This document shows positions 3,546 through 18,888 of a stretch of DNA of 64,000 bases, piece by piece. Under the pieces are notes generated by a model. The model saw only the letters and a program-made list of their open reading frames with translations, did no database searches and was not told where the DNA came from. The position numbers and the translations under genes were made by a program. Source of the DNA: an uncultured bacterium (lineage in GTDB: Bacteria; Patescibacteriota; Minisyncoccia; Phycocordibacterales; PALSA-1337). The first letter of the stretch is position 1; every line of letters starts with the position of its first letter. The DNA is taken from NCBI GenBank assembly GCA_903839725.1, contig CAIMDG010000001.1:107559-171558 (forward strand), written 5' to 3'.

Positions 3546-4784
3546 ATGAATATCAGACATACATTCAAAACATCATTCACAGGACTTACCACGAATCGTT
3601 CGAGATCGGCTTTAACGATTCTCGGTATCGTGATCGGTATAACCGCTATCATGCTTGTTATTTCTCTTGGAGGAGGAGCACAGGCTCTCATCTTGGGACA
3701 AGTGCAAGGACTCGGTACAAATACTATCGCCATCATTCCGGGACGTGAACCAACAGGGCCTTCAGATGTGAGTGCGTTGTACAGCGATTCGCTCAAACAG
3801 AAAGATATTATTGCGTTACAAAATAAAGCCAATGTTCCTGGATTAAAATCTATCATGCCAACGGTGTTCAGCGGTGGAACTTCTGCATACGACGTCAATG
3901 CATATCAAGTTTCAATATTTGGAGCAACTGAACATCTCGCTGATATCTTTGACCTTCATCCGGACCGTGGAGAATTTTTTACTATGGATGACGTGTTGTC
4001 ACGTAATGACGTGACAGTTATTGGTTCGAAAGTAGTTGAGCACTTGTTTGGAAATGACAATCCTATTGGTCAGAAAATCAAGATTAAAGGTAGAAATTTC
4101 AAAGTTGTTGGAACATTACCTTCGACAGGTGGTGGATCATTGTTCAATTTCGATAATATGACACTGATGCCATATACGACTGCGCAGGATTATTTACTTG
4201 GTATCAAATATTTTAGTCGTATTATTATCCAGACTCAGACTGATGAACAAGTTCCTTCAGCAAGTGCTGATATAGCTCAGACACTTCGTGATTCTCACAA
4301 TATTACTGATCCTGCAAAGGATGACTTTACTGTTCAGACCCAACAAGATCTCGCCAATCGTCTCGGTACTATTACGAGTGCACTCACGTGGTTCTTGGTG
4401 GCAGTTGCTTCGATTGCATTGTTCGTAGGTGGAGTTGGTATCATGAATATTATGCTTGTTTCAGTTACTGAACGTACTCGCGAAATTGGTTTACGCAAAG
4501 CACTCGGTGCAACTGATCGCGACATCCTCTCACAATTCCTTCTAGAAGCAGTCTTGCTTACGGCAATTGGCGGTCTTGTTGGGATCATACTTGGCGCATC
4601 GCTTGCATTTATTATTGCTATTGGGTTATCGAAAGGGCTTGGAGTCAATTGGCAGTTCATATTCCCATGGTCTGGTGCCATTCTCGGACTCGGTGTCTCT
4701 GCACTTATCGGTCTTGTCTTCGGAGGATATCCTGCGAAACAGGCTGCAAAGAAGAGTCCAATTGAGGCATTGAGGTATGAATAA
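3546..4784 (+). CDS. ABC transporter permease, FtsX/MacB family
   Basis: N-terminal TM, large periplasmic domain, C-terminal 3-TM FtsX domain (TERTREIGLRKALGA); adjacent to ABC ATPase. Confidence 0.85.
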   Translation: MNIRHTFKTSFTGLTTNRSRSALTILGIVIGITAIMLVISLGGGAQALILGQVQGLGTNTIAIIPGREPTGPSDVSALYSDSLKQKDIIALQNKANVPGLKSIMPTVFSGGTSAYDVNAYQVSIFGATEHLADIFDLHPDRGEFFTMDDVLSRNDVTVIGSKVVEHLFGNDNPIGQKIKIKGRNFKVVGTLPSTGGGSLFNFDNMTLMPYTTAQDYLLGIKYFSRIIIQTQTDEQVPSASADIAQTLRDSHNITDPAKDDFTVQTQQDLANRLGTITSALTWFLVAVASIALFVGGVGIMNIMLVSVTERTREIGLRKALGATDRDILSQFLLEAVLLTAIGGLVGIILGASLAFIIAIGLSKGLGVNWQFIFPWSGAILGLGVSALIGLVFGGYPAKQAAKKSPIEALRYE

Positions 4785-5922
4785 TATTTTCAACAATATG
4801 AAACAAACAAAGCAGGGAATAACCAAATTGAGCGTTGTCATGATTGTTGTTACAGTGATAATAATTGGCAGTTTGTTATATGTGGCATTTTTTTCTACTC
4901 AAAATTCATTTATAAGAAATAGTGCGCAACTGATCCCTACCAATGAACAAGTTCTCGCACAACGACCCCAGATCGCAGATGCAGATAATTCGTATTATGA
5001 TTTGATAGCTCTCAAAGGATTGATTCCCGCATCTCTACCACAAGTTGTATTGAATTATGCAGCTGGTTCTACTACGTCAGCACAAAACATAAAAGATCTC
5101 AAAAAAATAGTTACACAATATAAGGATGCATTTGCTATTTTCGATGCATCCACCGAAAAACCATATTATTTCTGTGATGACAAAGTAAAAAAGGAAGTAT
5201 GTAATTATTCAGATATACGAAATATAGCTTTATTGAATTCAGTACGATCCGGAATGCTCTTTGAAAATGGTAAGTATGCTGATGCTATGAATATATCCAT
5301 GAATACGTTGAAATTTGCACAAAAACTTCAACAGCCGTCAGATAGTCTCATGGAATATCTCATTTCGCTTGCCGTGAAGAGAATTGCTCTTCAGAGAATT
5401 TCTATAATTTTGAAATCAGGGAAGATATCTCAAGAAGCATTTGTTGCATATCAAAATCTGGTTTCTCAATATGCAGACAATAAAGGTGGTCAAAAAAATG
5501 TCTTAAAAATCGAACAGCTCGGTGGTTTCACTCTCTACATTAACGCAATAACAACAAATGAGTATAAGACATTCTTTTCATATACAGGTGTAGATGAGAA
5601 TGATGCTGATATGAAAAGTGTTGTTAATCGTATGCAGGAAGTAAAAACCAAGAATGCTGAAACATGGGATCCATATACCACATACAATTTGTTGCATGAA
5701 GTGTATTCAAATGAAGTAGCTAATATTGATTTACCTTGTGGCAGTGCGTATCCATCTGTATGGCGTCCAGATGAAACACTCGATTATTCGAAACCTACAA
5801 AAAATATTATAGGGCAATTGATATATGCGAATGCTCTTACTGAACTCAATGATTTGAATGTTCAGCGTTGTTCAATCGATAACCTCACAAATGCAGTTGT
5901 ATCTATGTCTTTTGTGAAATAA
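4777..5922 (+). CDS. Hypothetical membrane-anchored protein, translationally coupled 4th gene of efflux operon
   Basis: ATG overlaps permease stop by 8 nt; single N-terminal TM then 350-aa soluble domain with no recognisable motifs. Confidence 0.5.
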   Translation: MNNIFNNMKQTKQGITKLSVVMIVVTVIIIGSLLYVAFFSTQNSFIRNSAQLIPTNEQVLAQRPQIADADNSYYDLIALKGLIPASLPQVVLNYAAGSTTSAQNIKDLKKIVTQYKDAFAIFDASTEKPYYFCDDKVKKEVCNYSDIRNIALLNSVRSGMLFENGKYADAMNISMNTLKFAQKLQQPSDSLMEYLISLAVKRIALQRISIILKSGKISQEAFVAYQNLVSQYADNKGGQKNVLKIEQLGGFTLYINAITTNEYKTFFSYTGVDENDADMKSVVNRMQEVKTKNAETWDPYTTYNLLHEVYSNEVANIDLPCGSAYPSVWRPDETLDYSKPTKNIIGQLIYANALTELNDLNVQRCSIDNLTNAVVSMSFVK

Positions 5923-6052
5923 CTCGTATATAAGGCTAATCGTAAGCATATAATTGAATATGACTATCTATTTGTCTAATACTATGCTATTATAGTCGTT
6001 CTAGTGGAAATAGTAATTAAGTCGAATTTCTTCACAATAAACAAACAATCCC

Positions 6053-6250
6053 ATGACAGGAATAATCAAAACTCTCACAGATAAAGGATTTGGATTCATT
6101 GCTCGCGAAGGCGAAGTAAAGGACCTCTTCTTTCATTCAAATGACCTCCAAGGTGTATCTTTCGACGCTCTCCGCGTTGGTGATACTCTTTCTTTCGAAG
6201 TCGTTGATGGCCAGAAAGGCCCAAGTGCAAAGAATGTAACACGTGTATAA
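6053..6250 (+). CDS. cspA: Cold-shock protein (CspA family)
   Basis: 65 aa, KGFGFI RNP1 motif, FFHSN...GQKGPSAKNV. Confidence 0.9.
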   Translation: MTGIIKTLTDKGFGFIAREGEVKDLFFHSNDLQGVSFDALRVGDTLSFEVVDGQKGPSAKNVTRV

Positions 6251-6271
6251 TTCACGATACATCTCACAAAA

Positions 6272-6300
6272 AACACCCCGAGCAATCGGGGTGTTTTTTG
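6272..6300 (+). terminator. Rho-independent terminator after csp
   Basis: acaccccgagcaatcggggtg hairpin followed by TTTTTT. Confidence 0.85.
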
Positions 6301-6504
6301 TTGCATACGCAGTAGTGTTCGTATAAATAAAAAACTCACAGAAGACTGTGAGGGGTGTGTCAGGAAGGGAGTCGGTCGGGAGGTTATGAAAGGAGGTGGG
6401 GAACCTCGCTGAAGATTGCACAGCTCCCAACCTGACACAAAAATACTCTAACATATATCTCAATTATTATCAACCCCTCGATGTTTTTCAATCTTAATTC
6501 GCGG

Positions 6505-6628
6505 AGAGACACAGGGGGTGTATGTACTCATTTTCTGCGCAAGTTTAGAGACACATACATTACACCGCGTACCCCAATGTTTACAAACTTGCGCAGAAAA
6601 TGAGTACATACACCCCCTGTGTTCTGTG
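6505..6628. repeat. Palindromic intergenic repeat, family copy A (inverted orientation relative to B/C)
   Basis: Long near-perfect hairpin; core ctcattttctgcgcaagttt...aaacttgcgcagaaaatgag shared with copies at 26407 and 29272. Confidence 0.85.
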
Positions 6629-6674
6629 CTTATAAAAGATGAAAAACATCTTATTTTCTGCTAAAGTGTGACGT

Positions 6675-8978
6675 ATGAACGAGCCATCAAAGATTCCTGC
6701 AAAATTCCTCAAACCATACGACCCAGCTTCAACTGAGGATCGTATCTATTCTTTGTGGGAAAAGAGTGGTTTTTTTAATCCAGATCATTTGCCTGAACGT
6801 AATAAACAAGGCGAACCTTTCTCTATTGTATTGCCACCACCAAATGTGACAGGAACTCTACATATGGGTCACGCTGCAATGTTGGCCATCGAAGATATTA
6901 TGATTCGTTACAAGCGCATGAAGGGATACCGCACACTCTGGGTTCCTGGTACGGATCACGCCGCCATTGCAACTCAATCAAAAGTTGAAAAACAAATTGA
7001 AAAAGCAGAAGGTAAACGTCGTCATGATCTCGGTCGTGAAGAGTTGTTGAAGCGCGTCAATGCTTTTGCTCAGGAAAGTCATGACACTATCGTCAATCAA
7101 GTTCGCAAGATGGGTGCATCGATTGATTGGTCACGTGAAGCATTCACTCTCGATCAACATCGCAATCTTGCAGTGCGTACTGCATTCAAGACTATGTATG
7201 ATCTCGGTCTCATTTATCGTGGTTCAAAAGTTGTCAATTGGGATCCAAAAGGTCAGACCACTATTTCTGATGATGAAATAGTGTATGAGACTAGAAAAGC
7301 AAAACTCTATACATTCAAGTATTCAAAAGATATTCCAATTTCCATTTCAACAACACGTCCCGAGACCAAGCTCGGTGATGCTGCTATTGCAGTTCATCCT
7401 GACGGTCCTCGCTATCAGTCATATATTGGAAAAGAGTTTGATGCAGTATTCGCCGGCGAAGCCATTCACGTCAAAGTTATCGCTGATACTGCGGTTGAAA
7501 AAGAATTCGGAACTGGTGCGCTTGGCGTAACACCTGCACATAGTAGTATCGACTGGGATATGGCACAACGTCATAATCTTCCAATGAAACAAGTTATCGA
7601 TGAATTTGCTCGTATGACTGTTGGTAATGAAGCAATCAAAGGCAAGAAAGTTACCGAAGCTCGCGCGGCAGTCGTTGAATGGCTTAAGGCTGAAGGTCTT
7701 CTCGAAAAAGAAGAAGATATTGACCAGAATGTCGCTACCGCTGAACGTACAGGTGGTATTATCGAGCCATTACCTAAGTTGCAATGGTTCGTTGGTGTGA
7801 ACACGCCGTTCGTATTGGCCCATTCTACTATTCCTGGAATTGCGTCAGGATCAAAAACAACATTGAAGGAAATCATGCTCCAGTCAGTCAAGAGTCGTGC
7901 CATCACTATCATTCCTGATCGTTTTGAACGCGTGTATTTCAATTGGATTGAGAATTTGCGTGACTGGTGTATTTCACGACAGATTTGGTACGGACATCGT
8001 ATACCAGTGTGGTACAAAGAAATCTCAAATCTCAAATCTGAAATCTCAAAATCGGGAACAGCGACAGCGGGAGAGAGTGAGGTGTATGTTGGTATAGAGG
8101 CTCCAATTGGTGAAGGATGGTCTCAAGATGAAGATACACTCGACACATGGTTCTCATCTGGCTTGTGGACATTCTCGACATTGGGCTGGCCCCGCTCTGC
8201 CGAGGCTTCACAGGGCAAGCCTGATGATTTCAGTCTCTTCCATCCAACGAGTGTACTCGAAACAGGATACGATATTATTTTCTTCTGGGTTGCGCGCATG
8301 ATTCTTATGACAGGATGTTTGATCGGAGAAGTTCCATTCAAGACAGTGTATCTACACGGTCTCGTTCGTGATGGTAAGGGAAGAAAGATGTCCAAGTCAC
8401 TCGACAATATTATCGACCCTCTCGATATGATTGCAAAATACGGAGCTGATGCGACACGCTTGTCACTCATTATTGGTACAGGACCAGGTAATGATATGAA
8501 ATTGTCAGAAGATAAGGTGAAGGGGTATAAGAATTTTTCAAATAAGATTTGGAATATTACTCGTTTTATATTGTCCGCTGCAGCAGGTGAACGTTTTGGT
8601 TCTACAGATGTTCCCGCTATTACGTATGACCCTGCATTCAAAGCGTGGTCTTCTGTTGAACTTGCTCATATCAAAGTCTTGAATGATCTCATCGCTGAAG
8701 TTTCAAAAGAAATGGATGAATTCAAGTTTTATCTTGTAGGAGAAAAGTTGTACCACTATATATGGCATGAATTGGCAGATAAGATTCTTGAAGAGAGTAA
8801 ATCTATATTAAGTGGGGACGATCTCCAGGCTCGTACTTCTCGCATTCAGTTTTTATTGCATAGTCTGAACACTTCGCTTCGACTCATTCATCCATTCATG
8901 CCGTACGTTACTGAGGAAATATGGCAAGAAATGGAGAATACACACCTATTGATCGTTGAAGAGTGGCCACGAGCATAG
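6675..8978 (+). CDS. valS: Valine--tRNA ligase (short form, 767 aa)
   Basis: PPPNVTGTLHMGHA class I HIGH region, KMSKS (GKGRKMSKSLDN), WCISRQ motif; length shorter than typical ValRS. Confidence 0.85.
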   Translation: MNEPSKIPAKFLKPYDPASTEDRIYSLWEKSGFFNPDHLPERNKQGEPFSIVLPPPNVTGTLHMGHAAMLAIEDIMIRYKRMKGYRTLWVPGTDHAAIATQSKVEKQIEKAEGKRRHDLGREELLKRVNAFAQESHDTIVNQVRKMGASIDWSREAFTLDQHRNLAVRTAFKTMYDLGLIYRGSKVVNWDPKGQTTISDDEIVYETRKAKLYTFKYSKDIPISISTTRPETKLGDAAIAVHPDGPRYQSYIGKEFDAVFAGEAIHVKVIADTAVEKEFGTGALGVTPAHSSIDWDMAQRHNLPMKQVIDEFARMTVGNEAIKGKKVTEARAAVVEWLKAEGLLEKEEDIDQNVATAERTGGIIEPLPKLQWFVGVNTPFVLAHSTIPGIASGSKTTLKEIMLQSVKSRAITIIPDRFERVYFNWIENLRDWCISRQIWYGHRIPVWYKEISNLKSEISKSGTATAGESEVYVGIEAPIGEGWSQDEDTLDTWFSSGLWTFSTLGWPRSAEASQGKPDDFSLFHPTSVLETGYDIIFFWVARMILMTGCLIGEVPFKTVYLHGLVRDGKGRKMSKSLDNIIDPLDMIAKYGADATRLSLIIGTGPGNDMKLSEDKVKGYKNFSNKIWNITRFILSAAAGERFGSTDVPAITYDPAFKAWSSVELAHIKVLNDLIAEVSKEMDEFKFYLVGEKLYHYIWHELADKILEESKSILSGDDLQARTSRIQFLLHSLNTSLRLIHPFMPYVTEEIWQEMENTHLLIVEEWPRA

Positions 8979-9104
8979 TCATATAGATGTATCCCTATTG
9001 CTCAATAGGGTGTGACCTTAGTTGTCCACACGAGTATTGTCAACAGGTTGGCTTGTTTTAGGATATAATTGAGGAATAGTTTTAATAACTCGTTTATATT
9101 TCTT

Positions 9105-12056
9105 ATGAAAAAATCATATATCTATCTCGTAGGCTTCACCTTTCTCTTTGTTTTGGGATTGTCATTCGTTACGGGATCGAGATTGATTGCTCAGGCACAA
9201 ACAGTAACACCTCTCAGTGGTTGGGCATGGTCATCAACTATAGGATGGCTCAGTTTTAATTCTTCAAATACAGAAATTGCAGCAGTAACAACATCACCTT
9301 ACTCCGTAAAGATTACAGTTGATTCAACTGGTAATACTGCAACATTGAGTGGCCAAGCATGGTCACCAAATATTGGTTGGGTTAGTTTTGATGCTGCAGA
9401 TGTGACAAATTGTCCAGTGGGTACATGTACTCCAACGATTAATTTGAATACAGGAGTAGTTTCTGGTTGGGCAAAAGCGCTTGCAGGAGATGGGACGATG
9501 GGATGGGATGGTTGGATAGGGCTTGCATCCACTACATGGGGAGTTTCGTATACAAAAACAACTGGAGCTTTTGGTGGATATGCATGGGGAAGTACGAACG
9601 TTGGTTGGTTATCTTTTGCAAATGTAACATGTCCATCATGTGTCGTTGCTTTGAATGTAACAAATGTAACTGTTGGTATTGGAGCTGGTAAAGTCACAAG
9701 TTCACCTTCAGGTATCGATTGTGGCATCATTTGTTCATCACAATATAGTCTGAATACCTCTGTAACATTGACAGAAGTACCAAGTGCTAATTCAACATTT
9801 ACTGGTTGGGGAGGAGCATGTAGTGGTACTGCAACGACGTGTACAGTTTCGATGAGTCAGGCAAAAAATGTTACCGCAACTTTCAGTTTGGTACCGATCA
9901 CTGTTTCTGTAAATACAACAGGTCCAGGTACTGTTACAAGTAATTTAGGAGGTATCTCATGTTCTGATGGAAATGCTGGTATATGTAGTAGTACATATGT
10001 CGCAGGCACAAATGTAACATTTACCCAAACACCAGCTGCAGGTGGAAATACATTCCAAGGCTGGGGAGGAGCATGTACAGGTACAGCGACAACATGCAGT
10101 ATTACCGTGAAAGGACATTCCGGTGATTTTGCTGCTACAACATACAATCAATGGAAGAGCCTATCTTTCTCAGCTTCTGAAATCGCTTCTGGTATAGCTG
10201 ATGAAATGTCAGACCCAGATAACGATACTGTACCAAATATCTATGAGTATGCTATCGGAACTGATCCACATGTCTTGAATCCTACTGTGGCAAATAAGAT
10301 GGCTGTGTTCCGTGGTTATAAGTCAGGAAACAATTTTGCATTTGATCACAAACTCAATACAAACCGCACAGATATAACATTTAAGGTTGGGGTAAAAACA
10401 GACCTCAGTACACCTTGGATTTATTATCCAGATGCATCTTCATTTACTGAAACTCAAAAAACGATTGATTCAGCAACAAAGTTGGTTACTGACAAAGCTG
10501 TAACTTCTTTCATGAGTGTTTCGTCAATGTATTTTGTATTCGGTATAAATAAAGGAGGTGTAGATTATTGGGCACCAGCTGCAATTTCTCCTGCCCCTAG
10601 CTTCGGTTCAGACCCAGGAACACCGGCATCAATCCTTCCATTCGTTACAGCAACATTCGTAGGAAATCCAACTCTCACACTCAATAAGAACGGTAGTGGA
10701 TCAGTTACCGATTCATCAGTTGCACCTGGCTCACCTCTCCTGCATTGCGGAACAGCGATAACAACCATACCATGTAGTAGTTCTCAGTACCCATTGAATA
10801 CCGTTGTCACTTTGACAGCTGTTCCTGCGACTGGATATACATTTACCGGTTGGAGTGGTGGAGGATGTGATGCGAATGGTCTTACCACATGTACAGTTAC
10901 TATGGATGTAAGTAAGACTGTTACAGCAACATTTACTACAGTTCCAGTTGATCTTAATGTGACAGTAACCGGCACCGGAGGCATAGTTGTTGGTGGAGGT
11001 ATATCATGTACTTCTACTGGAGGTACATCTTGTTCCGCTACGAGTCCTTCAGGAACTGTAGTGACACTGACAGCAGCTACAACATCTACCGGTATTACAT
11101 TTACAGGTTGGGGCGGAGATTGTCTCTCGAATGCAACTTCTCCAACATGTGTATTGACATTAAGTGCTACAAAAAATGTAACTGCAGTATTCGATGTTGT
11201 CGAATCTAATCTTACGGGAACATGTTCAATACCTGCGACTGCGGCTTATGCACCAATAACAATATCTGCAACTCTTAGCCCTGCTCCATCAGGTGCAAGT
11301 TGGCTCCAAACTTTCTTCTATTTCACTACACCAGGTACCTATAGTCCAACAGTTATTCTTTCGAGAAGTTCAACAGATCAGGTTGATGTTCCTTGCGGAC
11401 AAATTATTATCGCAGCTCCTGGTCCGATAGGAGGAGGGTCAGGAAATCTTACAGGAAGATGCTCATTTAGTCAGTCATCATATCCATGGTCATCTACCTT
11501 GAGTCTTACCCCAATACTCTCGAATACTTCTGGTGGTTCTGGAACTGGTTATTACTTCACACCATCGACTCTCAGTGGATTCACTCCTGGTAGTACAAAT
11601 CAACCTACAGTTACATTGCATGATGATGCCGGCAATAGTGTACCGATTACCTGTGATACATTCACCGTTGGCCTACCTGGTACCGTAACTCTTATTTCGG
11701 GCACATATAAGTTGTCTGTAGCTGGTACTCCAAGTTTGGCAAGTCAGGGAACACGAACTTCTGTTATTTCAAATAACAATGGACCAATCTATGCATATTG
11801 GCTCAGTTCGAGTGCTGGATGTACTATAAATGTGACACGCGCCTCTCTTGTCAAGACAAATCTCTATCTTACTCAATGGGCTCAGAATGGATTGCCTGTT
11901 ACAACTACGTTTGCCAAGAATGATATTAACCTTAAAAAGATATTGATGGTGGGTATACCAGATGATGATTGGAGTCTCCAGTTGATGTGCGGCGGAGTTC
12001 TGAAGGGTCCTAAGGTCAACATAACAGAAAGTGGATCAACAGTAACAGAGATATAA
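9105..12056 (+). CDS. Large secreted/cell-surface protein with Listeria-Bacteroides-type repeat domains
   Basis: Signal/TM at N-terminus; four N-terminal SGWAWSSTIGWLSF-type repeats; at least four 65-80 aa repeats with pattern C..C..Y..VTLTA.P...F.GWGG.C....C.V.M...K.V.A.F; ORF opens at TTG 9069, ATG 9105 preferred. Confidence 0.8.
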   Translation: MKKSYIYLVGFTFLFVLGLSFVTGSRLIAQAQTVTPLSGWAWSSTIGWLSFNSSNTEIAAVTTSPYSVKITVDSTGNTATLSGQAWSPNIGWVSFDAADVTNCPVGTCTPTINLNTGVVSGWAKALAGDGTMGWDGWIGLASTTWGVSYTKTTGAFGGYAWGSTNVGWLSFANVTCPSCVVALNVTNVTVGIGAGKVTSSPSGIDCGIICSSQYSLNTSVTLTEVPSANSTFTGWGGACSGTATTCTVSMSQAKNVTATFSLVPITVSVNTTGPGTVTSNLGGISCSDGNAGICSSTYVAGTNVTFTQTPAAGGNTFQGWGGACTGTATTCSITVKGHSGDFAATTYNQWKSLSFSASEIASGIADEMSDPDNDTVPNIYEYAIGTDPHVLNPTVANKMAVFRGYKSGNNFAFDHKLNTNRTDITFKVGVKTDLSTPWIYYPDASSFTETQKTIDSATKLVTDKAVTSFMSVSSMYFVFGINKGGVDYWAPAAISPAPSFGSDPGTPASILPFVTATFVGNPTLTLNKNGSGSVTDSSVAPGSPLLHCGTAITTIPCSSSQYPLNTVVTLTAVPATGYTFTGWSGGGCDANGLTTCTVTMDVSKTVTATFTTVPVDLNVTVTGTGGIVVGGGISCTSTGGTSCSATSPSGTVVTLTAATTSTGITFTGWGGDCLSNATSPTCVLTLSATKNVTAVFDVVESNLTGTCSIPATAAYAPITISATLSPAPSGASWLQTFFYFTTPGTYSPTVILSRSSTDQVDVPCGQIIIAAPGPIGGGSGNLTGRCSFSQSSYPWSSTLSLTPILSNTSGGSGTGYYFTPSTLSGFTPGSTNQPTVTLHDDAGNSVPITCDTFTVGLPGTVTLISGTYKLSVAGTPSLASQGTRTSVISNNNGPIYAYWLSSSAGCTINVTRASLVKTNLYLTQWAQNGLPVTTTFAKNDINLKKILMVGIPDDDWSLQLMCGGVLKGPKVNITESGSTVTEI

Positions 12057-12072
12057 AAATATATTTCTACAC

Positions 12073-12100
12073 AAAAAACCCAGCAATGGGGTTTTTTGTT
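12073..12100 (+). terminator. Rho-independent terminator after surface protein gene
   Basis: aaaaaacccagcaatggggttttttg. Confidence 0.8.
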
Positions 12101-12248
12101 GTACATGTTTGGGTGAGGATGTAAGGTTTGTTATATGTAGTACGGCCCAAGCGGCATTTCACAAATTTTTGTCAAAGTACAGGTGGATTATGTGGTTTTT
12201 TGATTCTGAATAAATGATGTACTTTAATGTTATAGATAGGGAGATACT

Positions 12249-13175
12249 CTATAAGTTTTCATTCTTAATCTTTGAATATGCTTTCTTAAGCTCAAGTGTT
12301 AATTTCTCGATATGTTCATTTTGTTTTATCTCATGCAAAGTTCCTCGGATTATTAGTATTCCAAATACTATACTTATAATGAGTAAACTTGCTTCCTCTA
12401 TCGTGGTGTGCACGTCCTTTGCCCCACAAATGCGAATAATCGAGATTATCCATAATGCAAACATGACTAACTCGATGGCGATGACTTTAATATTAAAGAG
12501 CATATGTCGAGTAATTGAGTATGTCATAAGGAAAATCCAGAAAATTGCTGATATAGGACCAAGCCAATTCAAATCAAAATATCCAAATCGGGGTAATATT
12601 ATAGATATGGTAAATGGAATAATTGAACCAAATAATATTAATAAGAATACATATTTAATTTGATTTTTTATTAAAATTTCAATACATTTCTTGTAATCAT
12701 TAAATAGTTTAACTAGACCAATAGTAAATGAGGAAAGAAAATATACTTCAAAAAGTAATGATAGTGGTCCAAAATGCCAACCCCAGGATGATACTGAGTT
12801 GAGATTATATACATCATATACAATTAAGTTAGTAAAAAAGAATAGGTAAAATAATATTATTTCCCAAGCAATTAAAATTATCTGTAAAATTTTTGAAGGT
12901 GCTTTGTTGTGCGGGTATATAAAAAAGAAGTTTAAAAATGATGAAGCAATGAGACTTCCTACAAAATACGTAAATCTGTTTAAAAATGTAGCTACTGTGT
13001 GATTGTTTGTTGAAATTAGGAATCCCATTCCAGTCATCCATATACATGCTAAAAGAATACTAAACCCAAAAGATTTTCCAGATTTATTTTGCGTGCTTAC
13101 ATATGTAAGAATTGTTAAGCATGCAACTATAAGGGCTGTAAGCCAAATAAACATTGAGTATATAGAAATTGTCAT
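12249..13175 (-). CDS. Stand-alone 7TM sensor-domain protein paralogous to the N-terminal domains of the two downstream histidine kinases (no kinase domain)
   Basis: 7 predicted TM helices; C-terminus LHEIKQNEHIEKLTLELKKAYSKIKNENL aligns with HK linker YREISQREKIEKLATDLQKANDRLLELDRQ and stops where the DHp domain would begin. Confidence 0.6.
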   Translation of the reverse strand: MTISIYSMFIWLTALIVACLTILTYVSTQNKSGKSFGFSILLACIWMTGMGFLISTNNHTVATFLNRFTYFVGSLIASSFLNFFFIYPHNKAPSKILQIILIAWEIILFYLFFFTNLIVYDVYNLNSVSSWGWHFGPLSLLFEVYFLSSFTIGLVKLFNDYKKCIEILIKNQIKYVFLLILFGSIIPFTISIILPRFGYFDLNWLGPISAIFWIFLMTYSITRHMLFNIKVIAIELVMFALWIISIIRICGAKDVHTTIEEASLLIISIVFGILIIRGTLHEIKQNEHIEKLTLELKKAYSKIKNENL

Positions 13176-13329
13176 AATATTTGGTAATTATAATACCTGA
13201 TTAAATTTAATGCTAAGTAGGATTGAATATTGAATATTCAGGGTAATCATGCTTAATTATTCAATCAATAATTTAATACAAAGTATTTTATGTAAGGCTT
13301 CATGTTAGTCAATATGTTATAATCTATTA

Positions 13330-14148
13330 ATGGTAAATTTCGAGGAACAATTTTGTACAAAAAGAAGTATAAATTTCTATGGAAGATCTATATCGTTCGT
13401 AGATGTGACTCCACCCATGCTCATAAGCAATATTCCTATTATTATTGCTCCTGGTTGGGGAGAAACGCCAAAAACCTTCAAAGATTTAATACACTTGTTA
13501 TTTGACGCCGGATTTCGAGTGGTTTCGATGACACATCCACGACAAGATTTGAAGTTAATTACTAGAAGTAATATTTCTAGATTAGAATCACAAAAAGCTG
13601 AAATTATTTTAACAGTATTAAAATTTCTTGGTATTGAAAAGGTAAACGTTGTAGCTCACTCAGAGGGTGCCATAAACTCAGTTATTGCGGCGCACATGAA
13701 ACCTACTTTATTTAAAAATATATTACTTGTGGGACCAGGGGGGCTTGTTGAAAATGAAAATTTTACTGAATTAGCAGGTAGGTTTATTGGTAATATGATT
13801 CAAGGCGGAGGTCAAATATTTACGGATTCTGTCGCGCGAAAGTATATTATCAGATCAGGGTTGGAAACTTTTAAATATTTTCTTATGAATCCAGTCATGG
13901 GACTTCTAGAAGGGAGTGCAATATCCAGAACGCATCTACAAGATTTTTTGGTTGATTTACATTCAAATAATATAACTATAGGAGTAATTCATGGCGTAGA
14001 TGATATAGTTTTTCCACTCAAGAAAATGAAATCATTGACTGAATTAAAATGGATTAGCTTTTATTCAGTTGAGGGTGATCATAGTGACATATATGATCAT
14101 TCAGAGAAGTATATTACCTTTATTCAAAAAAGATTTACTGATAATTAA
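13330..14148 (+). CDS. Alpha/beta-hydrolase fold protein
   Basis: PGWGET N-terminal motif, nucleophile elbow VVAHSEGA (sm-x-Ser-x-sm), size 272 aa; AT-rich gene. Confidence 0.6.
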   Translation: MVNFEEQFCTKRSINFYGRSISFVDVTPPMLISNIPIIIAPGWGETPKTFKDLIHLLFDAGFRVVSMTHPRQDLKLITRSNISRLESQKAEIILTVLKFLGIEKVNVVAHSEGAINSVIAAHMKPTLFKNILLVGPGGLVENENFTELAGRFIGNMIQGGGQIFTDSVARKYIIRSGLETFKYFLMNPVMGLLEGSAISRTHLQDFLVDLHSNNITIGVIHGVDDIVFPLKKMKSLTELKWISFYSVEGDHSDIYDHSEKYITFIQKRFTDN

Positions 14149-14159
14149 GATTTAATGAA

Positions 14160-14831
14160 ATGAATAAATTTTATATAATTAGTTTACTTATTCAGCAAAA
14201 GTTACCTTGGGTTCCGGTAAGAATATTGTTAGTTTTATTTGCTCATTTCAAAGTAACTGGATTAGAAAATCTAAAGGGTATTAAAGGTAATGCCATTTTT
14301 GCTTGTAATCATGCTAGCGAACTAGATATTCCGCTTCTTCCAGCCGCAATACCTTTTTGGTCACATTTTTCCCCAATGTTATACGCATCTCGAGAAAGTG
14401 GTTTTTATGGGGGATCCGGATGGCGAAGACATTTTTATGGCGGTGTATTTTTTAATTTTTTAGGATCATATCCTGTGGTAGTTGGCTTACGAAATTATAA
14501 AAAAGCACTATCTCATCAAATTCGTATTATTAATACTGGTAATAGCTTATGTATTTTCCCTGAAGGAAGAACTACACCAAACGGCATAATCCAAGGTGCA
14601 AAAGGTGGGGTAGCTTATCTTGCGTATATAACAAATGTTCCAATAGTTCCCGTTAAACTCGGTGGAACTTTTAGATTTTCAATAAAGAATTTTCTATTAA
14701 GAAAAATTAAATTATCGGTTAGTTTTGGCAAACCCATATATTTATCTGTAAATAATGAAGTAGATATACCAATCAAAGAGTGCAAGGATAGGGCAAATGA
14801 GGTTATGGATGTAATTAAAAAGATGGTATAA
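14160..14831 (+). CDS. 1-acyl-sn-glycerol-3-phosphate acyltransferase-like (PlsC family) lysophospholipid acyltransferase
   Basis: HX4D motif NHASELD, FPEGRTT motif III, N-terminal membrane anchor. Confidence 0.7.
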   Translation: MNKFYIISLLIQQKLPWVPVRILLVLFAHFKVTGLENLKGIKGNAIFACNHASELDIPLLPAAIPFWSHFSPMLYASRESGFYGGSGWRRHFYGGVFFNFLGSYPVVVGLRNYKKALSHQIRIINTGNSLCIFPEGRTTPNGIIQGAKGGVAYLAYITNVPIVPVKLGGTFRFSIKNFLLRKIKLSVSFGKPIYLSVNNEVDIPIKECKDRANEVMDVIKKMV

Positions 14832-14841
14832 TTTAATTACC

Positions 14842-15717
14842 ATGAAAGGAGTTTTCATCGACAATGATCATACGGTTGGATATGAAACCAACTCAATTTT
14901 TCGTAAAATATTTAATCTTATTTTTATACCTGTATTGTATATTTTTCCATCTAGAGCGGTACATATTTTAAAAAAAATTCATGTATCAACAGAAGAGATG
15001 GTTGCTCATGCTGGAACACATAGGGCAATGGAAGTAATTTACGATGTCAACCCTCGGCCCAAAGCAAATTATTTTCAAAATTTGTTTCTGTCAGTATGGC
15101 TGGGAATGAATAACTCAAAGGCTGTGAGGAATAGGCTTAGAATGGTTAAAAAGGAAATCAAAAGGAAAATACATAAACTTTCTGAACTGAATAAAGAAAT
15201 AAAAATTATTAATATTGCTTCTGGATCAGCCCGTGCTGTATTTGAATCTATTCATGAGGTTCCTTTGAAAAATGATACAAAACTATCTGCTGTTTTTGTT
15301 GATAAAAATTATGAGGCAATTGCCTTCAGTCAACAGCTAGCCAGTACTCATAGGTTTCTCCCATCTTTTAGATGGGTAAATGATTATGCTCATAATTATT
15401 TAAATAACAATGAGAATAAGTCAAAGTTCAATATCGCAGAAGTTGTCGGTTTGCTGGAATACTTAAGTGATAAAGATGCAATAAATATTTTCTTATTAAT
15501 TTATGAGTGTTTAGATTCTGATGGTATTCTCATTACAACAAATATTGTTAGTAATTTTGAAAGTACATTTATATCAAATTCTGTTGGATGGAAAATGAAC
15601 CATCGCAATGTTGATGAGTTGTCTTCGCTTCTAATCGAGGCAGGGTTTAAATTGGACAAGATGAATATTTATTATGAGCCTCAACGAATACACTGCGTAA
15701 TAGTGGCTCAAAAATGA
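14842..15717 (+). CDS. Hypothetical protein, possible class I SAM-dependent methyltransferase
   Basis: IINIASGSARAV resembles MTase motif I, VFVDKNYEA resembles motif II; weak. Confidence 0.35.
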   Translation: MKGVFIDNDHTVGYETNSIFRKIFNLIFIPVLYIFPSRAVHILKKIHVSTEEMVAHAGTHRAMEVIYDVNPRPKANYFQNLFLSVWLGMNNSKAVRNRLRMVKKEIKRKIHKLSELNKEIKIINIASGSARAVFESIHEVPLKNDTKLSAVFVDKNYEAIAFSQQLASTHRFLPSFRWVNDYAHNYLNNNENKSKFNIAEVVGLLEYLSDKDAINIFLLIYECLDSDGILITTNIVSNFESTFISNSVGWKMNHRNVDELSSLLIEAGFKLDKMNIYYEPQRIHCVIVAQK

Positions 15718-17342
15718 ACCCAGTTAATCTATTTGCCATATCAGCCTTAGTTAATGGAATCGTCTCTATTACATTTGGACTGCTTGTTATTTCTAAAAAT
15801 TGGAGAGACAGAATGAACCAGATATTCTTCTTAATGACTGTTTTTTTAGCTATTTGGTCTTTTTCATACTGGCAGTGGCAATTGGCAACTAGTTATGATA
15901 CAGCATTACTGTGGGTTAAATTGTTATCGATTGGATCACTGTTTATTCCAATATTTTTTTACAATTGGGTTATAAAATTAATTAATGAAGAAAGTCTTCT
16001 TAATAGAGTTGTCTTATGGTCTTGTTACATAACATCTTTTTGTATTCTTTTTTTTGTTAATTCTAATTTGTATATTTCCGGATTAGAAAATAAATCTTTT
16101 TTTCAGTTTTGGCCTAGTTCAGGTGTGGTCTATGATATATATTTTTGTTATATATATTTTGGCCTAATTTTGTATACAGTTTATATATTGTTTCGTACTT
16201 ATTTTATAACCAAAGATAGAGATAAAAAAGGACAGTTATTGTATATAATTATTAGTTGCGTTCTTGGCTTTGGTGGAGTTATAACAGATTTTCCTCTTTG
16301 GTGGGATATTAACATACCACCATATGGTAATTTTTTAGCCGCTGTTTTTCCTCTATTACTAGGTTATTCAATTTTAAAGTACAAGTTATTTAATGTCCGA
16401 GCTATTGTTTCTGAAATTCTTGTATTTTTTATTTCAATCGTTTTGTTAATTGAAGCAATTTTATCAGTTTCCGTCCTGGAAGCAGTAGTAAAATTTTCGG
16501 TATTTATTATTGTTTCAATTTTTGGGTATATACTTATTCGCTCTGTATACAGAGAAATCTCCCAGCGCGAAAAAATCGAAAAACTCGCCACTGACCTCCA
16601 GAAAGCCAATGACCGCCTTCTCGAACTTGATCGTCAGAAGTCAGAATTCGTCTCATTCGCTACACACCAACTTCGCGCACCTCTAACTGCCATGAAAGGG
16701 TATGCCTCTCTCATTTTGGAAGGGGATTTGGGGGCTATTAGTGACCAGCTCCGTCAGGCAATTTCTCGAATATTTGAATCATCGAAGACATTGGCAAATA
16801 TAGTTGATGACTATTTGAACCTTACTCGTATTGAGTTGGGAACAATGAAATATGCATTTGATACAGTTGATCTGAAGACGGTTGTTGAAGATGTTATCGG
16901 AGAGCTTGGGCCAAATATCAAGAAAGATGGGCTTGAATTCACATTCAAGGCTGAGGATATGGGTGATCAATGGGATTGGCGTGTTACGGCGGACCGAGAC
17001 AAGCTTAAGCAAGTTATTGCAAACTTGGTCGACAATTCGATCAAATATACGTTACAAGGCTGGGTTCACGTGACATTGTCTTTTGACCGACCTAAGCATA
17101 AGTTTCTTTTTAGAGTAGAAGATAATGGTATAGGTATAGCCTCAGAGACACTACCATTGCTATTCAACAAATTTAGTCGTGCGGGAAATGCCAATAAGAC
17201 AAATATCAAGGGTACAGGACTTGGTTTGTTCGTGGCAAAACAAATTATTGACTCGCATCATGGTGCCATATACGCAACGTCACCAGGTGAAGGTAAAGGA
17301 TCGACATTTACCGTTGAATTAGAACCATTCGCTAAAGCATAA
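15714..17342 (+). CDS. 7TM sensor histidine kinase (HisKA + HATPase_c)
   Basis: 7 TM helices, H-box SFATHQLRAPLTAMKGY, N-box/G-boxes (NLVDNSIKYT, EDNGIGI, GTGLGLFVAKQI); start overlaps previous gene by 4 nt. Confidence 0.85.
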   Translation: MNPVNLFAISALVNGIVSITFGLLVISKNWRDRMNQIFFLMTVFLAIWSFSYWQWQLATSYDTALLWVKLLSIGSLFIPIFFYNWVIKLINEESLLNRVVLWSCYITSFCILFFVNSNLYISGLENKSFFQFWPSSGVVYDIYFCYIYFGLILYTVYILFRTYFITKDRDKKGQLLYIIISCVLGFGGVITDFPLWWDINIPPYGNFLAAVFPLLLGYSILKYKLFNVRAIVSEILVFFISIVLLIEAILSVSVLEAVVKFSVFIIVSIFGYILIRSVYREISQREKIEKLATDLQKANDRLLELDRQKSEFVSFATHQLRAPLTAMKGYASLILEGDLGAISDQLRQAISRIFESSKTLANIVDDYLNLTRIELGTMKYAFDTVDLKTVVEDVIGELGPNIKKDGLEFTFKAEDMGDQWDWRVTADRDKLKQVIANLVDNSIKYTLQGWVHVTLSFDRPKHKFLFRVEDNGIGIASETLPLLFNKFSRAGNANKTNIKGTGLGLFVAKQIIDSHHGAIYATSPGEGKGSTFTVELEPFAKA

Positions 17343-17346
17343 TTAT

Positions 17347-18888
17347 ATGAATTTATTTGCTGCATCATGTCTTGTTCTTTCTCTCAGTAGTATCCTATTT
17401 AGTTTTATTCTCTACAGAAGTGATCCGTTGAATAAAGTAAATAAATATTGGTTCATTTCAAGTCTCGTCTTTTCTCTATGGTCATTCGGTCTATTTGAGA
17501 TTGCACTTACATCCGATGATTCCATGGCCTTCTTCTGGCAGAACATGATCAATGTATCAGCCGTATTCATTCCCTTGGTATATGTATTTTTTCTCTTTGA
17601 ATTCCTCGGACTCAAGCAACGAAAGATGCGTATCGGGTTGTTTGTCTTGGCAGCAGCATTCTCTGAATTTAGTCTGACTCCATTGTTCCAACAAGGCATA
17701 ACAATGACAAAAGGTTTCTTCTGGATCAATCCAGGACCATACTATTTGCTGTTTCCAGTCTATTTCATGGTCTATGCAATCATATCAGTATCTCTCCTCG
17801 TTGTTTCCTATGGAAATTCAGAAAAGGGTAGTCCTATGAGAAAGCAGATACGTAATATGATCATCGGAAGTTTGATTGGCTATTTGGGTGGAGTTACAAA
17901 CTTTTTTCCTGAAATATTCGGAGACTATCCATACGGTAACTATTTGATCATTTTTTACATTATATTCATGATCTATGGCGTTATACGCTATAGAAGTTTG
18001 AATGTAAAAACTATTTCAACACAACTATTTTCAGGAGCTTTGATATCAGTGGTATTCTTCAATTTTATGCGTTCAGTTAATCTGGAAGATTGGATAGTTA
18101 ATTCAATTGTCCTCATTCTCGTTATTACATTTAGTATGATCTTGGTTATTGCAAATGATCACTTGAACGAAACTAACCGAGAAAAGTCAGAGTTCGTATC
18201 ATTTGCTACGCACCAACTTCGCGCACCACTAACTGCTATGAAAGGGTACGGTTCGCTTATTCTCGAGGGAGACATGGGTGAAGTAAACCCAGAAGTTCGC
18301 CAGGCAGTTTCTCGTATGTTCGAATCAACCAAGACCCTCGCCAGTATTGTTGATGACTATCTTGATGTAACTCGTATCGAATTGGGAACCATGAAATACA
18401 TATTTGACCGTGTTGATCTCAAATTGTTGATTGAAGATGTTATCGCTGAACTCAAACCAAATCTCAAACGTGAAGGTGTTGCTTTTGACTTTAAGATTGA
18501 AGAAATGGGTCAGCAGTGGGATTGGTCAGTAAAAGCGGATCGCAACAAATTGAAGCAAGTTATTGCAAATCTATTGGACAATTCAGTGAAGTATACCTTG
18601 CAAGGTTTTGTGCACGTCTCATTGTCTTTTGATAGAAAGAAACATAAGTTTGTATTTAAAATCGAAGATACTGGAGTAGGTATTGCACCAGAGGTTCTTC
18701 CAACACTCTTCAATAAATTCATCCGCGCCGGTAATGCGAATACTGCCAATGTTAAAGGTACTGGTTTGGGTCTTTATGTTGCAAAACAAATTGTTGAAGG
18801 TCATCGTGGAGCAATTCGTGCTTCATCTGCCGGAGAAGGAAAAGGCTCAATATTTGTAGTTGAGCTCAATCCATTCGAGATTCTCTAA
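17347..18888 (+). CDS. 7TM sensor histidine kinase, tandem paralogue
   Basis: Same architecture; kinase domain about 70% identical to the upstream HK at protein level, nucleotide similarity obvious by eye. Confidence 0.85.
   Translation: MNLFAASCLVLSLSSILFSFILYRSDPLNKVNKYWFISSLVFSLWSFGLFEIALTSDDSMAFFWQNMINVSAVFIPLVYVFFLFEFLGLKQRKMRIGLFVLAAAFSEFSLTPLFQQGITMTKGFFWINPGPYYLLFPVYFMVYAIISVSLLVVSYGNSEKGSPMRKQIRNMIIGSLIGYLGGVTNFFPEIFGDYPYGNYLIIFYIIFMIYGVIRYRSLNVKTISTQLFSGALISVVFFNFMRSVNLEDWIVNSIVLILVITFSMILVIANDHLNETNREKSEFVSFATHQLRAPLTAMKGYGSLILEGDMGEVNPEVRQAVSRMFESTKTLASIVDDYLDVTRIELGTMKYIFDRVDLKLLIEDVIAELKPNLKREGVAFDFKIEEMGQQWDWSVKADRNKLKQVIANLLDNSVKYTLQGFVHVSLSFDRKKHKFVFKIEDTGVGIAPEVLPTLFNKFIRAGNANTANVKGTGLGLYVAKQIVEGHRGAIRASSAGEGKGSIFVVELNPFEIL

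Follow-up and report, generated by a model that had tools for sequence, protein, structure and literature searches.

The window (the whole stretch of DNA that was analyzed, 64 kb in length) carries on its reverse strand a short gene that encodes a kinase-less membrane protein. Next to it, on the forward strand, lies a divergent operon of three enzyme genes followed by two full 7TM histidine kinases, HK1 and HK2, which are 45% identical to each other. The features of the locus and the evidence for each are listed below.

12066..12105, reverse strand: hairpin and U-tract between convergent genes, a plausible bidirectional intrinsic terminator (sequence; RNA fold -15.2 kcal/mol, z = -2.9)
12249..13175, reverse strand: short gene, kinase-less protein with nine predicted transmembrane (TM) helices; ATG start, 308 aa, stop codon 12249-12251 included
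12252..12335, reverse strand: predicted cytoplasmic tail helix, residues 281-308 (AlphaFold2 helix 255-307, heptad register, alignment to HK1 284-302)
12336..12491, reverse strand: TM8-TM9 hairpin, residues 229-280, with a near-invariant intramembrane Glu235 (hydropathy, AlphaFold2, BLASTP to HK1, near-invariant columns)
12489..13145, reverse strand: HisKA_7TM module, residues 11-229 (TM1-TM7; β-hairpin 119-135 in the outer TM4-TM5 loop)
13187..13216, reverse strand: promoter-like site TTAGCA-18 nt-TATAAT (consensus scan; TATAAT 11 nt ahead of the ATG)
13330-14148, forward strand: α/β-hydrolase (Pfam, NCBIfam)
14160-14831, forward strand: PlsC/AGPAT-type acyltransferase (Pfam, NCBIfam)
14842-15717, forward strand: Methyltransf_20 (Pfam, NCBIfam)
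15714..17342, forward strand: HK1, full 7TM histidine kinase, 542 aa (Pfam HisKA_7TM, HisKA, and HATPase_c)
15714-16565 and 16566-17342, forward strand: sensor half (low GC, nonorthologous to that of the sister species L003) and kinase half of HK1 (comparison with L003; GC 0.291 versus 0.425)
17347..18888, forward strand: HK2, full 7TM histidine kinase, 513 aa (Pfam HisKA_7TM, HisKA, and HATPase_c)

The short protein belongs to the Pfam family PF16927 (HisKA_7TM), which it matches with 39.1 bits (gathering score, 28.6), its residues 11-229 covering positions 3-222 of the 224 in the model. The precomputed Pfam annotation of an identical protein, P0001, likewise gives PF16927. No Pfam match to HisKA was found in it at an E value of ≤0.1, and none to HATPase_c. 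With neither a DHp (HisKA) domain and its phospho-acceptor histidine nor an HATPase_c domain, the short protein is not a class I (HisKA-type) sensor histidine kinase. NCBIfam holds no name for it, nor do other public sources. Public gene calls start the protein at Met8; we favor the ATG at 13175 because the N-terminal motif M-x-ISIYS is kept among orthologues, and the real start of one of them (P0002) also lies upstream of its public gene call. A role in anti-phage defense was considered and rejected, since PADLOC gives no match for the short gene or for the three operon enzymes.

By BLASTP, the short protein is 32% identical to HK1 (E = 1e-14), its residues 170-303 aligning with HK1 172-302. 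A tblastn search widens the HK1 match to residues 72-303 (E = 1e-18) and also recovers HK2 (E = 9e-9). The Pfam HisKA match of HK1 begins at residue 308 and its phospho-acceptor histidine is His318; L308, the final residue of the short protein, aligns with HK1 R307, so that the protein ends one residue ahead of the HisKA boundary and 11 residues before the histidine. An earlier note on this DNA had described a kinase-less paralogue of 7TM histidine kinases whose linker ends exactly where the DHp domain would begin. Both descriptions are borne out, and the similarity, which the note had allowed might vanish on proper alignment, persists.

That note counted seven TM helices. The hydropathy profile has nine peaks, and two AlphaFold2 models, one with 10 sequences (pLDDT 76, pTM 0.70) and one with 23 (pLDDT 88, pTM 0.77), agree on helices at residues 5-27, 31-55, 59-86, 95-114, 140-163, 167-196, 205-222, 229-251, and 255-307 and on a β-hairpin at 119-135. 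The short protein is accordingly predicted to have nine TM helices, seven of them within the Pfam domain and two, TM8 (229-251) and TM9 (255-280), beyond it, and the positive-inside rule fits an N-out/C-in topology. The TM8-TM9 hairpin is the part most like HK1. The tail helix, a coiled-coil stub of ∼28 residues, is predicted to run unbroken from TM9 and is equivalent to the signaling helix/linker of the kinases, with heptad core positions E282, Q285, I289, L292, L296, A299, and I303. L292 and L296 are near-invariant in kinases and kinase-less forms alike; E282 and Q285 are also near-invariant. Within the clade, conservation is highest in TM7, in TM8 with Glu235, in the inner "HxLFN" loop, and in the outer loop between TM6 and TM7, whose motif is GYFDLNW (majority fraction 0.94). 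The continuation TM7-"HxLFN"-TM8-TM9-linker is common to the short protein and the adjacent full kinases.

No solved homologue of the short protein was found by sequence, and it matches no enzyme or transporter family by sequence or fold. Foldseek searches of the PDB with the predicted structure returned sub-threshold matches only, all of them receptor-type 7TM bundles, with an identity of 4-14% for those of GPCR type. Judged by significant sequence or profile similarity, the short protein is not a homologue within the GPCR superfamily. The resemblance to the GPCR 7TM fold is structural only and rests on a predicted structure that has two extra TM helices, and nothing indicates homology or G-protein-like partners.

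The short gene is intact and under purifying selection. A truncated pseudogene had been one of the readings offered in the earlier note, with a degraded or frameshifted HisKA/HATPase region to be sought downstream. Two kinds of tblastn query were used, the kinase halves of HK1, HK2, and P0012 and the DHp tails belonging to P0004, P0007, and P0009 (a word size of 2, with E allowed up to 10 in one search and up to 1 in the other; window region 11000-12250 covered), and neither detected a DHp or CA remnant in the window or behind any orthologue. In the 64-kb window the kinase halves matched HK1 and HK2 alone. Only 192 nt separate the short gene from the next, convergent gene (9069..12056); the candidate terminator hairpin between the two was spotted by eye and then folded, and a strict consensus terminator scan does not flag it.

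A protein identical to the short protein occurs on at least 10 metagenomic contigs from several metagenomes, and on the two contigs with comparable DNA (L001 and L002) the gene is identical to that of the window at the nucleotide level. Orthologues in related genomes are near-identical in length (307 and 307 aa at 70% and 66% identity, against 308 aa in the window), with one of 323 aa at 46% identity. The ratio ω (NG86), obtainable solely for two pairs because dS is saturated in most others, is 0.13 for P0002-P0003 and 0.10 for the window protein and P0003. Control values from the same species pair are 0.025 for the HK2 sensor and 0.022 for the HK1 kinase half, so that the ω of the short gene is 4 to 5 times theirs; the gene is therefore constrained, yet more relaxed than the true kinases. 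The promoter-like site lies so close to the ATG that a near-leaderless transcript is predicted. A TATAAT-like box also stands 5 to 14 nt ahead of the start codon in L003, L005, L006, L011, L016, L009, and L020, as it does in the window. A mirrored box serves the divergent operon, and the divergent intergenic regions measure merely 29 to 154 bp, which suggests co-regulation. Taken with the absence of a kinase remnant, the near-equal lengths, the low ω, and the conserved boxes, the pseudogene reading does not hold. What stands of the alternative raised in the same note, a stand-alone decoy or modulator sensor, is the stand-alone sensor as an architecture: intact, maintained, and kinase-less.

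At least 10 species, with identities down to ∼30 to 45%, keep the divergent placement beside an operon that combines an acyltransferase with a full 7TM kinase, and this placement is therefore ancestral. A full 7TM kinase lies a few kilobases away on the opposite strand in every locus with enough flanking sequence (the window, L003, L005, L006, L014, L017, L019, L020, and L021). A PlsC/AGPAT-type acyltransferase gene directly adjoins the short gene, or a longer relative that retains the DHp domain only, in at least 10 species, in divergent or convergent orientation and sometimes on both sides. Besides the PlsC-type acyltransferase and/or other acyl- or amine-modifying enzymes, the operon encodes one or two full 7TM kinases at its end. 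Its enzyme slot varies between species, always holding enzymes that modify acyl groups, lipids, amines, or small molecules, as follows.

Window: α/β-hydrolase and Methyltransf_20
L003: HAD-IB
L005: acyl-ACP-reductase-like
L006, L017, and L021: BioF/Kbl/serine-palmitoyltransferase-type α-oxoamine synthase
L014: GNAT and SAM-methyltransferase
L019 and L020: AdoMet decarboxylase

The gene that follows P0009 (L006:7721-8620) had seemed a candidate for a second 7TM gene but proved on inspection not to be one. Searches by tblastn with the receivers of CheY, PhoB, OmpR, Spo0F, and NarL, which are of limited sensitivity, found no receiver domain or response regulator at an E value of ≤0.01 in the 64-kb window or in 21 loci.

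Homology searches and local domain mapping identified three architectures among close relatives: a 7TM-only form of 300 to 325 aa, a DHp-only form of about 399 to 423 aa, and the full kinase of ∼530 to 575 aa. The DHp-only form consists of the 7TM region, a long coiled coil, and a DHp domain with an intact His box (HHLRTP/HELRTP), and has no ATPase domain. Stand-alone proteins limited to TM1-8 (∼250 to 270 aa) are also present among the relatives, and approximately 10 representatives (P0014-P0018, P0025, P0035, P0036, P0058, and P0124) fuse 2 to 4 tandem 7TM modules to one kinase. The family members come from Patescibacteria ("Candidatus Paceibacteria," "Candidatus Taylorbacteria," and MAGs labeled "Saccharibacteria").

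One syntenic slot, conserved in Patescibacteria genomes of the Paceibacteria type, holds, in different lineages, a full kinase (570 aa), a DHp-only protein (404 to 414 aa, with the His box kept), or a 7TM-only protein (300 to 325 aa) such as that encoded by the short gene. P0160 (full, 570 aa, in L022), P0004 (DHp-only, 408 aa), and P0008 (7TM-only, 311 aa) share this slot, with a divergent acyltransferase upstream and Aminotran_5, DUF4446, IF-2, and RbfA downstream, and L022 shows the same arrangement, with a full 7TM kinase nearby. Their first 300 residues are 70 to 73% identical to one another, and the three-taxon branch lengths are near-equal. The derivation from a third histidine kinase proposed in the earlier note is supported by the complete 570-aa kinase in this slot. 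Each truncated form is cut at a domain boundary, one behind DHp helix α2 and the other ∼25 to 30 residues past TM9. Since three forms in one slot reach such mutual identity, truncation at these boundaries has recurred.

In a first neighbor-joining (NJ) tree, the CA-less proteins formed a clade (92% bootstrap) apart from the adjacent full kinases, with short and DHp-bearing forms interleaved inside it. A larger NJ tree of 93 representatives has unresolved deep nodes, and only pairs with 99 to 100% support were relied on. It contains sister groups of mixed architecture: P0138 (short) with P0125 (full) at 100%, and P0157 with P0109 and P0072 at 99%. These mixed pairs are only 36 to 48% identical and are therefore not recent breaks. 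A Fitch count on this tree gives 16 architecture changes, an overestimate because of the unresolved deep nodes. All members of the subclade formed by the window protein, P0002, P0003, and P0005 are short, at identities as low as 46%, so the short state has been kept for a long time. As read from these comparisons, truncations at exact domain boundaries had several independent origins. We are highly confident that the short gene is a maintained kinase-less orthologue of a "third" histidine kinase, with a history of recurrent clean truncation.

A variable block of low GC content occupies 12249-16565, with the short gene at one of its edges. The GC content is 0.29 to 0.33 from the short gene through the HK1 sensor half and 0.425 in the HK1 kinase half, and L003 has the same pattern. 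DNA homology to this sister species extends over 12298-13192 at 71%, is absent from 13193-16565, and resumes at 16566, which is codon ∼285 of HK1, at the TM9/linker junction. The kinase half of HK1 is 94% identical to its L003 orthologue and the sensor half only 27%, while HK2 is 84 to 90% identical throughout. A sensor-plus-enzyme cassette has therefore been swapped, the kinase linker marking one of the breakpoints, and the HK1 sensor half and the operon enzymes have been replaced relative to the sister species. The short gene is just within the low-GC block and outside the replaced segment. The earlier note took the divergent placement at the island edge as a hint of cassette shuffling of sensor domains; the placement itself is ancestral, as described above, while the edge position is correct and the HK1 end of the block does bear a real sensor replacement.

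The overall explanation that best accounts for these observations, to which we assign a probability of roughly 0.45, is that the short protein is a maintained 9-TM former kinase that acts as an auxiliary sensor or modulator of the neighboring 7TM kinases. The 7TM part is equally constrained whichever C-terminal modules are present, which argues for a retained function without need of phosphotransfer. Under the proposed mechanism, the short protein would still sense a signal, extracytoplasmic or within the membrane and plausibly lipid related, and would still dimerize through TM8/TM9 and the coiled-coil stub. It would associate in the membrane with the neighboring full 7TM kinases and tune their output, working by protein-protein contact. 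The neighboring 7TM kinase is the best-supported partner because of the constant co-location and the very short shared promoter regions, and because similarity to HK1 peaks in TM7-TM9 and the linker, where kinases normally dimerize. The tandem 7TM modules fused to one kinase further suggest, by Rosetta-stone reasoning, that kinase-less modules work with a kinase-bearing one. The short clade is only 18 to 30% identical to the neighboring kinases over the sensor region and its outer-loop motif GYFDLNW differs from theirs, so a simple decoy for the same ligand is unlikely.

Several observations count against a modulator. Histidine-kinase paralogues are generally insulated against heterodimerization, chiefly via the DHp domain, and DHp-based specificity is absent in the short protein. 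The tandem fusions are TM1-8 units that lack TM9 and the tail, the ω value indicates relaxed constraint relative to the true kinases, and the receiver searches detected no response regulator in the 64 kb or in the related loci. The mechanism proper, an auxiliary sensor subunit or a negative modulator of the neighboring full 7TM kinases, is therefore put forward tentatively, at somewhat less than even odds.

The main rival to the modulator model is a kinase-independent, lipid-related role, in which the task of the 9-TM module would be to bind or handle a lipid or an amphiphilic substrate or product, or to scaffold the PlsC-type acyltransferase. The short protein would act alone, as a homodimer, and the kinases would merely have co-opted the module as a sensor. 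The direct adjacency of the acyltransferase in at least 10 species agrees with it, as do the variable slot that always encodes acyl- or amine-modifying enzymes (SPT-like, acyl-ACP-reductase-like, HAD-IB, GNAT with SAM-MT, AdoMet decarboxylase, and α/β-hydrolase), the stand-alone TM1-8-only proteins, and the near-invariant Glu235 with the conserved outer loops. Patescibacteria are commonly regarded as unable to make fatty acids de novo and as remodeling the lipids that they scavenge, a background that also fits. However, a full 7TM kinase is nearby as constantly as the acyltransferase, and the coiled-coil stub is kept with a near-invariant core that a pure enzyme or scaffold would not need; the exclusively receptor-type fold matches and the lack of any enzyme or transporter family match point the same way. 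We consider this role unlikely on balance, while still giving it substantial weight. The short protein could instead signal to a separately encoded soluble DHp-CA module, so that the phosphorelay would be kept in trans. In favor of this, the tail reaches precisely to the DHp boundary, a coiled-coil stub is able to dock onto the helices of a partner, and the stretch analyzed covers only 64 kb of the genome. Such a split kinase is nevertheless improbable: no stand-alone DHp or CA open reading frame occurs in the window or in any of ∼20 related loci, the DHp-only intermediates point to stepwise loss rather than a split, and signal transmission normally requires a DHp four-helix bundle continuous with the signaling helix.

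Two further readings were considered. The short gene could be a reservoir of sensor cassettes, an inverted recombination donor that swaps its 7TM sensor onto the HK1 kinase at the linker. The geometry is suitable, with the short gene and HK1 in inverted orientation and the low-GC block reaching from the 3′ end of the short gene to the HK1 linker, exactly where the HK1 sensor was replaced relative to L003. In addition, the kinase parts of P0012 and P0013 are nearly identical (by eye, over the available length of P0013) and their sensors only 39% identical. Between the linker-coding segments (12249-12340 and 16560-16620), however, there is no inverted repeat, only AT-rich chance matches, and all independent contigs of this species have the same orientation, the gene DNA of L001 and L002 being identical. 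On these two grounds an active inversion shufflon was rejected. No recombinase gene was noticed beside the locus. The short clade is moreover of long standing as an orthologous group and has a promoter and conserved motifs of its own, and the donor reading as a whole is very improbable. The remaining reading, a decaying remnant of the third kinase in which disabling mutations have not yet accumulated, would account for a lineage that clearly lost first CA and then DHp, for an ω above that of the neighboring kinases, and for recurrent truncation, as expected of a dispensable kinase. It is strongly disfavored, with hardly any probability left to it, by an intact open reading frame whose length is conserved across 46 to 70% identity (the window protein, P0002, P0003, and P0005), which makes the short state old; by an ω of ∼0.1, far from neutral; by a short form that is not accelerated relative to its full-length and DHp-only sisters; by conserved promoter-like boxes; and by the lack of any kinase remnant downstream in the tblastn searches.

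Non-kinase membrane proteins encoded beside a kinase and tuning its activity by TM contacts include YycH/YycI with WalK, LiaF with LiaS, and SaeP/SaeQ with SaeS. These are not paralogues of the kinase sensor, whereas the short protein is a homologous sensor module. RetS, which acts on GacS in Pseudomonas, is a kinase-dead or truncated sensor kinase that remains functional through a paralogous kinase and that, unlike the short protein, keeps its DHp domain. The same difference separates the short protein from ChrS_CA-fs of Corynebacterium glutamicum, a functional CA-less pseudokinase for which two-hybrid assays showed ChrS-HrrS heterodimers (PMC9491836). ChrS_CA-fs is a truncated sensor kinase that functions via a paralogous kinase, as proposed for the short protein; it retains the DHp domain as contact surface and arose by mutation in the laboratory, whereas the short gene is old and conserved and any contact made by its product would be via TM helices and the juxtamembrane coiled coil.

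HisKA_7TM (PF16927), the N-terminal 7TM sensor region of histidine kinases, is listed by Galperin et al. (2018, PMC5847659) among the sensor domains that kinases of archaea and bacteria carry. The short protein has this domain and the same TM7-TM9-linker continuation as the adjacent full kinases, without any kinase. In the literature searched, HisKA_7TM is mentioned in censuses only, and the domain is experimentally uncharacterized. Nonenzymatic histidine kinase-like proteins with "HisKA, no HATPase" ("possible incomplete histidine kinases") have been described for archaea (PMC5847659). P0004, P0007, and P0009 (404 to 408 aa) are of this type, with a sensor, a DHp domain with the conserved histidine, and no ATPase. 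The short protein shares their clade and slot but has also lost DHp, which places it outside that class, and the phosphatase or phosphotransfer roles proposed for the class therefore cannot apply to it. We found no description in the literature searched of stand-alone HisKA_7TM proteins, of their conserved slot, or of a series from full to DHp-only to sensor-only forms.

A wider reading, which we regard as doubtful, is that kinase-less HisKA_7TM proteins are stand-alone receptors with a GPCR-type seven-helix core that signal purely through protein-protein contact. Each would be a sensor subunit acting in trans on paralogous 7TM kinases, and those kinases would control a hypervariable cassette for lipid or amine modification. 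The recurrent, clean origin of the kinase-less proteins from full kinases in Patescibacteria would then reflect selection for receptor/co-receptor pairs rather than decay, for which, if this reading is true, the truncated and decoy receptors of animals would offer an analogy.

In annotation and in general thinking, a histidine kinase is usually an indivisible unit of sensor and kinase, and truncated members are written off as pseudogenes. The occurrence of full, DHp-only, and sensor-only forms in one slot, with the sensor equally constrained, suggests that the sensor module has a selectable function without phosphotransfer, and such genes should be annotated neither as histidine kinases nor as pseudogenes. 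If the modulator role is true, it would represent a simple and widespread route to multi-input receptors in tiny genomes and would help to reveal what the HisKA_7TM domain senses. Its conserved association with acyltransferases and other lipid enzymes suggests that this signal may be the state of the membrane lipids, in bacteria that are believed to rely on lipids scavenged from elsewhere.

Histidine kinase HK1 (15714-17342, + strand) differs from its orthologue in the sister species (locus L003) mainly in the sensor, with the kinase half 94% identical and the 7TM sensor half (15714-16565) only 27% identical between the two proteins. When the interval 13193-16565 of the window was compared with L003:6966-9914, DNA homology was found to return exactly from position 16566, which is the junction between TM9 and the linker of HK1 and also the point where the GC content rises from 0.29 to 0.425. 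The operon enzymes encoded between the short kinase-less gene and HK1 (α/β-hydrolase, PlsC/AGPAT-type acyltransferase, and Methyltransf_20) are likewise non-homologous to those of L003. From these sequence comparisons, the interval 13193-16565 looks like the replacement of a sensor-plus-enzyme cassette with its breakpoint at the kinase linker.

Another pair of homologous kinases, P0012 (538 aa) and P0013 (438 aa, partial), may likewise have had their sensors swapped; alternatively, the kinase half may have undergone gene conversion. Their 7TM sensor regions share just 39% identity. In the alignment, judged by eye, the two appear almost identical from the DHp domain into the first part of CA, a likeness that covers only the length available in the partial P0013.

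On its other side, the short gene faces a convergent neighbor, and an antisense open reading frame (ORF) is recorded as lying wholly within its 3′ half.

Features beside and opposite the short gene
9069-12056, + strand, convergent neighbor of the short gene, 995 aa, TTG start
12214-12663, + strand, antisense ORF in the 3′ half of the short gene, 149 aa

The neighbor contains Flg_new_2/List_Bact repeat domains and, judged by eye, an N-terminal hydrophobic stretch resembling a signal peptide or membrane anchor. It shares 48 to 51% identity with its L003 counterpart, compared with 77 to 81% for the nearby housekeeping DNA (4162-8968), and seems to encode a surface protein that evolves rapidly. 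The antisense ORF is probably spurious and lies in AT-rich DNA.

The divergent genes are separated by just 29 to 154 bp in the window (13176-13329) and in the related loci L003, L005, L006, L011, L014, L016, L017, and L020. A TATAAT-like box is located 5 to 14 nt from the start codon of the short gene in most of these loci, and a mirrored box precedes the first start codon of the operon in several. No Shine-Dalgarno sequence was apparent by eye in the divergent intergenic regions of the window and the related loci, which suggests that they hold back-to-back near-leaderless promoters. Searches by tblastn with five canonical receivers found no response-regulator domain in the window (1-64000) or in L001 to L021, and Pfam/NCBIfam scans identified none fused to HK1 or HK2. 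The 7TM kinases of the window and loci appear to be orphans, at least locally.

The 7TM module also occurs in other arrangements. The genome GCA_040384025.1 (L005) encodes two kinase-less paralogues (L005:3893-4828 and L005:5802-6728) of 311 and 308 aa with 45% identity, separated by 1 kb with two small ORFs of unknown function. A putative stand-alone class of ∼250 to 271 aa comprises TM1-8 only, and many of its members share the C-terminal motif "...LLLF(I/V)SIFI", located inside TM8. In some histidine kinases, two to four tandem TM1-8 modules precede one DHp-CA.

Proteins with TM1-8 only or with tandem modules
TM1-8 only: P0085, P0087, P0090, P0092, P0103, P0105, P0121, P0142, P0151, plus others
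Tandem-module kinases, 1,495-1,561 aa: P0014, P0015, P0016
Tandem-module kinase, 1,205 aa: P0017
Tandem-module kinases, 935-1,254 aa: P0018, P0025, P0035, P0036, P0058, P0124

With up to ∼32 or more TM helices, the tandem-module kinases are reminiscent of the multi-GPCR-domain proteins reported for eukaryotes.
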